Shown here one piece after another: positions 8,485 to 57,112 of a stretch of DNA of 64,000 bases. The stretch comes from an uncultured delta proteobacterium (GTDB lineage: Bacteria; Myxococcota_A; Polyangia; Polyangiales; Polyangiaceae). Both the position numbers and the translations under genes were made by a program. Numbering within the stretch: the first letter of the stretch is position 1; each line of letters begins with the position of its first letter. The notes under the pieces are model-generated. The model did not search any database. It saw only the letters and a program-made list of their open reading frames with translations, and was not told the DNA's origin. The stretch lies in NCBI GenBank assembly GCA_963696385.1, contig CAVOKF010000001.1, positions 64,001 through 128,000 of the forward strand. The letters run 5' to 3'.

Positions 8485-8882
8485 GTTGAAGGACCGCCAC
8501 GCGATGCAAAAATCCGGCTTCCAACTTGACCATGACCGATCGCTCACTCTTCTCCTGCGCATCGAGAACCCGAAAATCGCGCTCGACCGAGGCGCGCAGC
8601 TGGCCGAGGTCCCGACCCCCGATGGCCCGGCGCACCGAGACTCGGACGTCCGGGCCCGTCTTGACCAAGACCCCCTCGTCGACGGCCACATAGACCTTGC
8701 CGTCGGGGTCGGTTTCGTACATCAGGATTCCCGGCGCAATCGCCGCCACGAAGTCGCGTCTGTGGGGCAAAAGTCCGATCGAATCCGTCGAGGGTCTCCG
8801 CGACGATGCGCGAGACGCCCGTCTTCTTGGCGAAAACTCCGAAGGGCAAGAGAACTTCAAGAGTCATGGGTTTCGGCGGCAT
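8477..8882 (-). CDS. atpC: N-ATPase epsilon subunit, interrupted by a single-base insertion at 8782/8783
   Basis: N-part [28 protein letters not shown] (ORF 8544..8999) continues as [20 protein letters not shown]...[10 protein letters not shown] (ORF 8477..8860). Removing one base gives a 134-aa protein. Confidence 0.9.
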
Positions 8883-10419
8883 GCTCGCCTTTCGGGGGCG
8901 GCTTGGGGCCGGCCTTCGGGGGTGGGCCGGCCGTGGTGTGGACGGCCGTCGTGGGCGCGTTGACGGGCTTCGGGGCTGGATCGGCCTGGGGCTTGCCATC
9001 GGGTTTGGCCGCGGCCGCCGGGGCGGAGCCGGGCTTGCCCTTGGCCTCGCGGATCGGGCCGATCATGTAGAGCGCGCTCTCCGGGTAGTCTTTGAATTCG
9101 TCGTGCAGGATTCGCTCGCAGCCGTCGAGCGCGTCCTCGAGGCTGACGAGCTTTCCTTGCAGCCCGGTGAACGCTTCGGTCGTGAAGAAAGGCTGCGTGA
9201 GAAAGCGCTCGAGGCGGCGTGCGCGGGCGACCACGCGGCGGTCCTCGGGCGAGAGTTGCTCGAGGCCGAGCATGGCGATGATGTCTTTGAGCTCGTCGTA
9301 TTGCGCCAGCGTTTTGCGAATTTGTTGTGCCAAAAGGTAGTGACGCTCCCCGACGATGCTCTGGGTCGCCATCTTGGAACTGGATTGGAGCGGATCGATC
9401 GCCGGAAATAGCCCCTCGCTCGCCCGCTTGCGCGAGAGCACGACCGACGCCGACAGATGCGCGAACGTGTGCACGGCCGCCGGATCGGTGAAGTCGTCGG
9501 CCGGCACGTACACCGCTTGGATCGACGTGATGGCGCCCGCGTCGGTGTTGGCGATGCGCTCCTCCAACCCCGACAGCTCGGTGCCCATCGTCGGCTGATA
9601 GCCGAGCCGCGACGGCATTTGGCCCATGAGGCCCGATACCTCCATGCCGGCCTGGATGAAGCGGAAGATGTTGTCGATGAGGAGCAGGACGTCCTTGTGT
9701 TCGTCGTCACGGAAGTACTCGGCGATCGTCAGTGCCGCATGGCCCACGCGAAAGCGGCTGCCCGGCGGCTCGTTCATCTGGCCGAACAGCATCACCATGC
9801 TCGGCAAGACCCCCGCCTCCTTCATGGCCCGGTACAGCTCTTCGCCCTCGCGGCAGCGTTCTCCGATGCCGCAAAAAATGCTCACCCCATTGTGATGCCC
9901 AATCATGTTGTGAATCATTTCGGTGAGCAGCACGGTCTTGCCCACGCCCGCGCCGCCGAACAGCCCCCCTTTCCCGCCGCGCTCGAGGGGCACGAGCACG
10001 TCGATGACCTTGATTCCCGTTTCGAAAATTTCCGACTTCGTGGACCGCTGTCCGAGCATCGGCGGCGCGCGATGCACGGATCGCCATTGGACGTCGGACA
10101 CCGCCGGCCCGCGGTCGATGGTATGGCCGAACACGTCGAACATTCGTGAAAGAACGGCTTTGCCGACCGGCGCCTGGAGCGGTCCGCCCGTGTCTTGCAC
10201 CGGCATGCCGCGAGCGAGACCTTGCGTGGGCGTCAAGGCGATTCCGCGGACGTGACGCGCATCGCTTTGCCCCAGCACTTCGATGACGATCTGGCCGCGG
10301 TCTCCGGCACGCAAAATGGAGTAAATGGACGGCAGAGGCCCGTCAAAACGGACCTCGACGACGCTGCCACGGACCGAGACGATGACACCCGAAGGCGACA
10401 GGCCGGACTCTTCGGTCAT
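8857..10419 (-). CDS. atpD: N-ATPase beta subunit with Pro/Lys/Ala-rich C-terminal extension
   Basis: [49 protein letters not shown]. True start is MTEESG at 10419 within ORF 8857..11682. Confidence 0.97.
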
Positions 10420-10449
10420 GGCGGCCGCGCTGTCATGGGCGTCTTCTAC

Positions 10450-53984: not shown

Positions 53985-55529
53985 GTGAACTCGGCGATCG
54001 CTCGAACGATCGGCATCCTCTGCCTTTTGGCGTCGTGCCAAGAGGACCGGGCGACCGAGTCGCAGCCGCCGGGCTTCGACGTCGACGTGGGGGTGCCGAT
54101 CCTGCAGGCGCACTGCGTCTCCTGCCACGGGAATACGAACCCGGCCGCGGGCTGGAGCGCCACGTCGTATTTGGCCGCGATCGGCTGCGTCGCGCCTTCC
54201 GGCGCGCCGGCCACGCTCCCGGCGAGCGGGGCCGCTCCGATTCTCGCCGCGCTCGACACGGCACCGCACGTAGGGCTGCTTTCGGACTCCGATCGCTCGA
54301 CGCTCTTGGGATGGGTGGTCGCGGGCACCCCGGACGTCGTGGACGGGGTGCACGATCCAGGGTTTGCCGATCCGCGGTCGATCGCGTTCCACGGGACGAC
54401 CTTACGCGCTGTGCGCTGGGCCCCGATGCTCGACGCCGACGATCCGAACGCGTGCGGGCGCTGCCACGCGGGAGCGCCCTCGACCCCCGCCGGCGTCACA
54501 TCGCCTGCACCGGGCGCGCCCGCCTGTACGAGCTGCCACGACCAGCCCGGGGGAGCGCTGGCGTGCAGCACCTGCCACGGATCCGGTACGATCGCCTACC
54601 CCCCGCGGGATCCTTGCTTTTTCCCGGGTGACGCGGTCAACGCCGGGGCCCATGCGGCGCACGTCCAGCCCTCGGAGGCTTTGCCGACGGGAGTCGCGTG
54701 CTCGACGTGCCATCCGGTGCCCGGCAATCCGGTCATCGGGGGCTATCACGGCGACGGGACCGTCGAGATCCTCTTTGATCCGACGGTCGTGGCCGGCGAA
54801 GCCAGCTACGACCGCGCGACGCAGACCTGTGCGGTTTATTGCCACGACCAGGGCGGCGCCCGGCCGCGACCGACCTGGAGCGAGACCACGCCGATGGCGT
54901 GCGGCGACTGCCACGGCTCGCCACCGAGCGGTCACTACGTGGGGCCGTGCAGCAATTGCCACGCGGAGGCGAATGCCACGGGCACGGCGCTGACCGGTGG
55001 GCCGCTGCACCTGAACGGCAAGGTCGACCTCGGCAACGGCAGCGGCCTCTGCGGCGCGTGCCACGGCAGCGGCAGTAGCCCGTGGCCGAGCACGGCCGCG
55101 CACCCGGCGCATCAGAATCCGACGATCACGGTGCCGCTCGATTGCACGAATTGCCACGTGGTGCCGAGCACGATCCTGGATCCCGTTCACCTGGATGGCA
55201 CGGTGCATGTCACGCTCTCGGGGCTCGCCATGGCGCGCGGATCGCTGCCAGCATGGGACGGCACCCAGTGCACGAACGTCGCGTGCCATGGGGCCAACCT
55301 GGCCGGCCCTGCGGCCGCCCCGGCCTGGAACGACACGTCGGGGGCGCAGGCCAAGTGCGGGGCATGTCACGGAATTCCACCCTCCGATCACACCCCCGCG
55401 ACGGACTGCAACCGCTCGGATTGCCACGGCTCGGAGGTGTCGATCGATGCCAACGGCACTCCGTCGATTGCCGCGATCGGCTTATCCCGCCACATCGACG
55501 GCATCATCGAGTTCGCCGGCTCCGAGTGA
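53985..55529 (+). CDS. Multiheme cytochrome lipoprotein, CxxxxCH/CxxCH-domain type (~13 heme motifs)
   Basis: Lipobox LASC; 10 CxxCH plus CAVYCH, CTNVACH, CNRSDCH; repeated H..H / H.DG.V / P.W / CG.CHG.PP units. Confidence 0.88.
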   Translation: MNSAIARTIGILCLLASCQEDRATESQPPGFDVDVGVPILQAHCVSCHGNTNPAAGWSATSYLAAIGCVAPSGAPATLPASGAAPILAALDTAPHVGLLSDSDRSTLLGWVVAGTPDVVDGVHDPGFADPRSIAFHGTTLRAVRWAPMLDADDPNACGRCHAGAPSTPAGVTSPAPGAPACTSCHDQPGGALACSTCHGSGTIAYPPRDPCFFPGDAVNAGAHAAHVQPSEALPTGVACSTCHPVPGNPVIGGYHGDGTVEILFDPTVVAGEASYDRATQTCAVYCHDQGGARPRPTWSETTPMACGDCHGSPPSGHYVGPCSNCHAEANATGTALTGGPLHLNGKVDLGNGSGLCGACHGSGSSPWPSTAAHPAHQNPTITVPLDCTNCHVVPSTILDPVHLDGTVHVTLSGLAMARGSLPAWDGTQCTNVACHGANLAGPAAAPAWNDTSGAQAKCGACHGIPPSDHTPATDCNRSDCHGSEVSIDANGTPSIAAIGLSRHIDGIIEFAGSE

Positions 55530-55551
55530 TCGTGCGCTGAGCCCCTCCGGG

Positions 55552-57112
55552 TCACGGGCTCGAAGCCCGGAACACGTGGCAACCGGTGCACACCGATACG
55601 CCGGGCTCGTGGTCGCCCCGGTCGGTGTGGCAACTTGCCGTGCACGTGGCGCGATCGTCGCGTGGCGGCTCGTGGGGCGACACGTGGCAGCTGGCGCACG
55701 CCGCGTGGCCCGGCACGGCATGGAGCCCCGGTAACGTGGCCGGCGCATGGCACGTCGTGCAAGCGGGGGGCGCGGCGATGCCGCCGGGGCCGTGGGGGCG
55801 ATGGCAGTTCCCGCAGCCTCCCGGGATCGCCCCGTGCGGCTCGCGGGTCTTGTCCGCATGGCACGAGGCGCACGGGGGCGTGGGCTGCCCGCCGTGGGGC
55901 TCGTGGCAACCGATGCAGCGCTGGTGGCCCGCGGGCGCGGACTTCTGTTCGACGGCATGGCAGGTGCCGCAAGGCGCCGGCGCCGCAATCGCATGCACGA
56001 CCGATGCGCCGTGGCACGACACGCAGTCGGCATGGCCGGGGTTCGATGCGACGAGCGTGGTCTCGTGGACGTGACAGTCTCGGCACAGGGTCTTTTCGTC
56101 CAGCCCCTCGAAGGCGTGCGGCTTGTGGCACGCCTCGCAGACGATGGCTCCGCTGTGCGCGCCGGTGTCGGTGGAGGCCACCTTCTCGTGACAGCTCGTG
56201 CACGTGGCCGCGACCGCGGTCGGATCGTCCGTGTGGGGCCGATGGCACGTGACACACGCGGCCGCGTTCCCGTGACTCACCTGGACGTCCTGGTGGCATC
56301 GCGCACAAGCGGCCGCGGCCGCGCCGGGAGCGTGCGGATTGTGGCAGTTCACGCAAACGGCGTGGGCCGGGACCTCGCTGGCGACCAGCGTGGTCTTGGG
56401 GCCGTGGCAGCTGACGCACACGCTGGCTTTCGCGACGAAGCTGTGAGGCTCGTGACAATTGAGGCACGCGTCGTGGGCGCTCGGGTGCGGTTCTGACCCC
56501 TGCGCATGGCAGCTCGCGCAGGCGGCCTTCGCCGCGGACGCAGGCTCGTGGGGGCGGTGGCAGTCGAGGCAACCCTTCGAATCCGGCGTGCTCGCCGTGC
56601 TCGGGCGCGCGCTCGCGGTGGCAACTCGTGCAATCCGCCGGGACGATGGAAGGGGTCTCGTGCAGGCGGTGGCACGTCGTGCAGTCGACGGTCGCGTGTT
56701 GCACCACGGCCGGCAGAAGGCCCTCCGGCCTCGCGTGGCAGTCGATGCATGTCGGCTCGGCACGCCCGATCGCGAACGCATGGCAGGTCAGGCAGTCGGT
56801 CGAGCGGGACGGACTGCCGTGGTGGGCGACGCCGGTTTCCCTCGCATGGCATTTCGTGCAGACCGCCGTGCCGGGGTTTTTGAACCCGTCGCGCTCGAAG
56901 TCGTGGCAGTCGTGGCACTCGGCCTTCGCCGCGCCCACGTGCGTCCGGTGACCGGGAGTCGTGCGCGCCTGGGCCCACGACGCGGGCACGAAGTCGGGCG
57001 TCACGCTCTTCGCCCTGTGCCGCCCGATCAGGACCCGCACCGCGAGGCATGCGGCCACGATCACGACCGCGCCGGCGAGGCCAAAGAGGACTCGTCGGAC
57101 CCCCCGGGTCAT
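55552..57112 (-). CDS. ~25-heme c-type cytochrome, single-base insertion at 56580/56581
   Basis: 6 CxxCH in ORF 55388..57139, then 18 CxxCH + CTASCH in ORF 55552..56781. One-base removal gives 519 aa. ATGA-coupled to the upstream gene. Confidence 0.88.

Follow-up and report, generated by a model that had tools for sequence, protein, structure and literature searches.

Results

Three interrupted genes in the window

We analysed a stretch of 64,000 nucleotides (hereafter the window) from the genome of an uncultured member of the Polyangiaceae, in which three genes, encoding the ATP synthase epsilon subunit (atpC), a Ser/Thr kinase and a multiheme cytochrome c, are each interrupted by a frameshift. 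The window corresponds to C1:64001-128000 of a 96%-complete genome assembly (G000) of eight contigs, 6.94 Mb and 66% GC. A word search locates TCGAATC on the plus strand at 8779, 12185 and 56577, within the three breaks, and deletion of one A in silico restores a single continuous minus-strand frame in each gene (Table 1). Both the shared word and the restored proteins had been reported in the first-pass annotation, made from the letters of the window, and both are confirmed here. Its description of the third gene as a multiheme cytochrome stands, since Pfam cytochrome c3/c7 domains are present on both pieces; a regular expression finds 6 + 18 = 24 CxxCH motifs, as compared with its count of 25 hemes. 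The codon phase of the break in the kinase differs, as had been noted, from that in atpC and the multiheme gene. This difference, together with in-frame contigs of the same species (all three genes) and the in-frame sequence of a relative, G003 (atpC and the kinase), rules out programmed ribosomal frameshifting, in agreement with the earlier view that the cause is not ribosomal.

Public DNA runs containing part of the window numbered 20 of the 22 listed. Contigs of five of them (X1-X4 and X10, from three studies) were aligned over 40 of the 64 kb, namely positions 1-20000 and 44001-64000. These runs represent other samples or strains, differing by dozens of single-nucleotide polymorphisms (SNPs), and show the sequence of the species rather than this exact DNA. 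The A at 8782 is left out in three of four runs, the remaining one (X10) having no cover there, and the As at 12188 and 56580 are left out in four of four; all three extra As are thus missing wherever an aligned run has cover (3, 4 and 4 runs). The gap-bearing contigs come from studies P1, P2 and P4. One loose end in X4 matches the Tn5 mosaic end, which suggests a short-read library.

Within 1-20000, the one-base deletions at 8782 and 12188 are the sole indels seen in more than one run, four other indel rows being single minor contigs. Within 44001-64000, the rows beside 56580 comprise one-base gains at three sites between genes (60445, 60468, 60487) and a single row from a minor contig (61536). 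The word TCGAATC or its complement GATTCGA occurs at 11 sites in the 40 kb aligned, three of them with a gap; seven of the other eight are bridged without a gap by listed X1 contigs, while no listed piece spans the one at 6854.

Table 1. Positions of the interrupted genes, extra bases, substitutions and Dam-family genes
Feature	Position	Strand	Remarks
Extra A at 8782, GATC assembled as GAATC	8779..8785	+	in atpC; left out in X1, X2, X4; relative G003 without the A
atpC (ATP synthase epsilon)	~8477-8883	minus	ATP-synt_DE_N (Pfam) on downstream piece
Extra A at 12188, GATC assembled as GAATC	12185..12191	+	in Ser/Thr kinase gene; left out in X1, X2, X4, X10; G003 without the A
Ser/Thr kinase gene	~11972-12944	minus	Pkinase (Pfam) upstream of break
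Extra A at 56580, GATC assembled as GAATC	56577..56583	+	in multiheme cytochrome c gene; left out in X1-X4
Multiheme cytochrome c gene	~55552-57139	minus	cytochrome c3/c7 (Pfam) on both pieces; 24 CxxCH
AATC for GATC	7665..7668	+	X1, X2, X4, X10; likely companion G-to-A miscall
AATC for GATC	8738..8741	+	in atpC, silent; independent contigs of 1-20000
AATC for GATC	11403..11406	+	X1, X2, X4
AATC for GATC	12326..12329	+	all four runs
AATC for GATC	12750..12753	+	X1, X2, X4
AATC for GATC	13969..13972	+	X1, X2, X10
AATC for GATC	15504..15507	+	X1, X2, X4
AATC for GATC	58614..58617	+	X1-X4
L151 (Dam family)	G000:C4:304522-305388	minus	TIGR00571, 275 bits (cut-off 115)
L152 (Dam family)	G000:C6 ~7121-8050	plus	TIGR00571, 277 bits (cut-off 115)

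Extra bases at GATC across the genome

The first-pass annotation had proposed counting frameshifts by sequence context over the whole genome, and such a count, over the part of the genome that aligned to a relative, gave an enrichment well beyond chance, at GATC. For the comparison we used the relative G003, from which 141 loci (2.78 of ~6.8 Mb) were taken; 2.47 Mb, or 35% of the genome, aligned at 92% identity. Only isolated one-base indels with gap-free flanks of 25 bases and at least 84% identity were counted. The assembly holds 395 extra bases relative to G003, of which 144 are single-base duplications, and 48 of these 144, where 3.7 would be expected, are GATC written as GAATC or GATTC (P 5e-36). 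In the mirror direction, this class accounts for 2 of 64. No other four-base context is enriched in the direction of the assembly (none below P 0.05), and duplication of A after G shows no excess outside GATC. When alternative gap placement is allowed, 61 of 395 insertions overlap GAWTC, as opposed to 3 of 260 deletions, with 1.3% expected by chance. The errors are private to this assembly and specific to GATC.

With 48 events at 18,289 GATC sites, the rate of +1 insertion is ~0.26%, from which ~130 such frameshifts are estimated for the whole genome. All but one of the 48 lie in coding sequence. The two bases to the left of GATC are CA, TC or GA in most cases (CA 14, TC 12, GA 11, CC 4, TG 3, CG 2, AA 1, TT 1, others 0). 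Per 1000 half-sites, CAGATC gives 9.4 events, GAGATC 4.4 and TCGATC 2.4, while ACGATC and GCGATC give none. TCG precedes ATC in only 12 of the 48 events confirmed by G003. A raw k-mer count shows no genome-wide over-representation of TCGAATC (observed/expected 1.01), the events being too rare to stand out in this way.

A reference-free scan with a codon model points in the same direction: +1 switches occur at 10.5 per 1000 GAATC sites, as compared with 4.5-6.2 for 14 control words. In the unaligned 65% of the genome, the excess in the CA, GA and TC contexts persists (17.5 versus 2.6-7.7 per 1000). First versions of the scan were uninformative, with ~80% of calls ambiguous, too loose a coding mask and 11 of the 48 known sites recovered; the improved version recovers 22-27 of the 48 at ~5-10 false switches per 1000 sites and serves as supporting evidence only.

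The same scan found six identical copies of a repeat element with the same +1 switch near GAATC (C4:1130826, C4:1171070, C5:1501429, C5:1528658, C7:1379420 and C7:1433012). Since the switch does not vary between the copies, it probably belongs to the mobile element itself, perhaps as a programmed frameshift, and is no artefact at GATC.

AATC in place of GATC

The extra bases are accompanied by substitutions. The substitution tables of the runs comprise the best-supported 80 rows, all of which were checked (64, then 16). Of the A>G/T>C rows in these tables, 25 in number, eight show AATC in the assembly where the runs have GATC (binomial P ~1e-6 against a background of 3.3%), and the 13 listed rows shared by X4 include seven (P ~6e-8, same background). 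Compared with G003, AATC in the assembly faces GATC in the relative 996 times, while the mirror case is found 718 times (P 3e-15). The excess appears in all six strand-by-codon-position classes, non-synonymous ones included (56:17, 31:13, 90:39, 38:9), and control contexts display no such excess across these classes. Taken together, the counts suggest that AATC miscalls may affect about 2% of GATC sites, roughly 1000 in the genome.

The AATC excess leans to the plus strand of the contigs (611:485, mirror 387:388; Fisher P 0.014), and does so in all three contig groups whatever their replication polarity, which points to processing. Clustering of error orientation along the genome is weak.

In the same 2.47 Mb of alignment, the most asymmetric of 1484 contexts concerns the A of GATC, G003 having GCTC where G000 has GATC in 708 cases and the reverse in 397. 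Possible causes are errors in G003 or, in one of the two lineages, mutation of A to C at methylated GATC.

Template-strand bias of the insertions

Of the 47 coding events, 39 have the extra A on the template strand (39:8) and hence GATTC on the sense strand. With a second strand caller the ratio was 46:17 (63 sites); in the unaligned 65% of the genome the bias is weak (44:31, raw and including background). Flanks of up to 3+3 bases do not account for it (27.4 expected, 39 seen, P 1e-4), nor do codon-aware local priors, after which the odds ratio stays at ~4-4.7. Replichore does not account for it either (13:11 on the G-rich-strand contigs C4-C6), and an expression proxy, the ribosomal-protein codon index, offers no explanation (median percentile 0.49 for the 29 of 48 events that were mapped, P 0.32). 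The AATC substitution excess, by comparison, is nearly symmetric with respect to gene strand (~124 coding, ~160 template), which speaks for a mark on both strands irrespective of transcription.

The template bias stems most likely from a sequence prior that the basecaller or polisher has learned, even though our tests of this idea did not absorb it. It is very unlikely that the bias is biological, that is, that the GATC mark differs between transcribed and non-transcribed strands through transcription-linked hemimethylation or a second mark.

Methyltransferases and other candidate systems

A search for methyltransferases, likewise proposed at first pass, revealed two full Dam-family genes, L151 and L152, with open frames and a DPPY motif (profiles TIGR00571 and PF02086). 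The nearest solved structure to L151 by alignment is DpnM (PDB 2dpm; E 2e-74), followed by EcoDam (2g1p). L151 keeps the equivalents of EcoDam K9, L122, R124 and P134 along with DPPY; the roles of the GATC-reading residues of EcoDam are described in PMC4417163. At Y119 it has F, like DpnM and unlike EcoDam. L152 has the same GATC-reading motif by eye. In family score and GATC-reading residues both thus resemble the GATC N6-adenine methyltransferases Dam and DpnM, and we predict GATC-type methyltransferase activity for them. They differ from enterobacterial Dam in falling below its equivalog cut-off of 441 (L151 179, L152 175) and in their genomic company: no MutH (PF02976) was found in G000, with E. 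coli as a positive control. Dam-MutH mismatch repair was accordingly rejected as a candidate system.

The nearest named relatives of the Dam protein are mostly Polyangiaceae and Myxococcota records, which makes a soil bacterium of Polyangiaceae type the likely source. Among 31 genomes of the order, 29 have a Dam match at E<=1e-30, this genome and the unpublished G010 included (28 of 30 without G010). The congeners G006 and G017 (91-92% complete) have no Dam match at this threshold. G006, an assembly of 20 contigs, would be a natural control, expected to be free of GATC-linked errors if these are due to Dam. In a Myxococcota genome bin from a different class, PacBio kinetics revealed GATC methylation on the binned contigs (PMC12772301).

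Other modification systems were also sought. Eight N6/N4 methyltransferase matches were obtained, seven of them near full length, with no assignable specificity. No C5-methyltransferase was found in the 96%-complete genome. Dnd phosphorothioation at GATC was rejected on the lack of any dndC or dndD match in it, a result with a weak control, as no control genome passed the cut-off, and one that leaves the Ssp phosphorothioate system unsearched.

Discussion

Origin of the extra bases

The pattern that we describe belongs to the assembly, where it is real, and not to the organism. It is an artefact of a known kind: methylation-linked long-read error at GATC. The extra bases are very probably GATC assembly errors that arose when Dam-type adenine methylation caused miscalls in long reads, probably nanopore ones; the platform is deduced from the eight-contig assembly and from the error signature. 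According to this explanation, GATC would be N6-methylated on both strands. Reads of one strand would call G as A, giving AATC, and reads of the other strand would call GATC. The consensus would then mostly settle on GATC, take up AATC at roughly 2% of sites, and retain both letters as GAATC or GATTC at ~0.3%.

Errors of this type are documented. G2A and C2T errors in R10.4.1 reads and assemblies affect one strand only, are lost after amplification and are enriched at GATC (PMC11610603), and assembly errors inside GATC have been reported for K. pneumoniae and S. enterica (PMC12392509). Our case shares with the R10.4.1 errors the motif, the G-to-A miscall and the persistence of errors into the consensus. 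It departs from the account in the accessible part of PMC11610603 in that a minority of sites carry a gene-breaking +1 insertion, with 5' preferences for CAG, GAG and TCG and an excess on the template strand. A literature search, outside which most subscription papers lay, returned no title or abstract opening on GATC-to-GAATC insertion or gene-strand bias.

Several points weigh against Dam-linked miscalling. The nanopore platform and N6-methyladenine (6mA) are inferences, and the accessible part of PMC11610603 describes substitutions and not GATC insertions. The seven N6/N4 methyltransferases of no assignable specificity are present as well, and the template-strand bias of the insertions is not accounted for. 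The comparison with G003 is confounded by lineage mutation bias, GATC>AATC being only the second of the 1484 contexts, behind GCTC/GATC. Finally, none of the eight AATC sites of the window changes the protein in the likely coding frame, which means that some may be genuine SNPs of the strain.

Alternative explanations

The artefact might stem from another mark at GATC, such as N4- or C5-methylcytosine, phosphorothioate, or a second modification on top of 6mA. Such a mark would fit the fact that the miscalled base is G and not A, it would have possible sources in the uncharacterised N6/N4 methyltransferases, and C5-methylated GATC is described for S. aureus (PMC11610603). We nevertheless consider it unlikely. 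The two Dam genes keep their GATC-reading residues, G2A errors at GATC are known for K. pneumoniae and E. faecium (PMC11610603), and neither a C5-methyltransferase nor dndC or dndD was found, with the limits on Dnd and Ssp given above.

A chimeric consensus of mixed strains, polymorphic at GATC (e.g. ATC/ATT), could in principle yield both letters. Silent changes between ATC and ATT are common, and the AATC sites of the window are silent too. Equivalent silent pairs in other words, however, give no duplication excess, most insertions lie in the phases GAT-CTN and GGA-TCN, in which such a change often alters the protein, and the non-synonymous AATC excess is equally large. This explanation is very unlikely.

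The first-pass annotation ascribed the breaks, as the likeliest cause, to a systematic basecalling error that arises where TCGA and GATC methylation motifs overlap, in TCGATC. A systematic read or consensus error at a methylation-type motif is upheld, whereas the overlap is not needed: the shared word is GATC. True, all three window sites are TCGATC, and TC is an error-prone left context, unlike AC and GC. Yet 36 of the 48 events lack TCGA, the rates for CAGATC and GAGATC are higher, and A is not preferentially duplicated after G outside GATC. The requirement for TCGA is thus largely refuted, and there is hardly any chance that it holds. The core word is GATC, matched by two Dam-family genes.

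That the extra bases are real, strain-private +1 mutations produced by a motif-specific mutational or repair process is extremely improbable; the annotation had judged it less likely. The independent contigs, being from other samples or strains, are no proof of this strain's DNA. Yet a single lineage would need to have fixed ~130 frameshifts, nearly all coding and one in atpC, without purifying depletion, and the mirror lineage shows two. In addition, the accompanying AATC excess follows the orientation of the contigs, and no MutH was found.

Other observations

At 60445 the assembly is one base short relative to four of four runs (GAATTC read as GATTC), at 60468 relative to two and at 60487 relative to three. 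Since these sites lie between genes, we regard the missing bases as strain differences or as locally poor consensus. Nearby, a plus-strand gene (~60800-61010) encodes, by translation, a peptide repeated four times in tandem with little variation and rich in P, H and G.

L152 is located between a gene for a Shedu SduA (DUF4263) nuclease and one for a DUF7226-like protein (G000:C6:5711-9427), a putative small defence-island-like arrangement that is absent around L151. L151 adjoins a gene for a PolB-like 3'-5' exonuclease.

Implications

This genome represents its species, and we estimate the false frameshifts in it at ~130 and the false G-to-A changes at perhaps 1000. Claims of broken genes, pseudogenes, recoding or editing at GAATC/GATTC or AATC/GATT in it should be discounted until checked, and the same applies to similar long-read genomes of Dam-bearing soil bacteria. 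As for biology, the pattern suggests at most ordinary GATC methylation in an order where Dam is widespread. The sole possibly new point is the template-strand bias, for which a software prior is the more likely source; if the mark at GATC did differ between strands, errors in the assembly would be a free readout of it.

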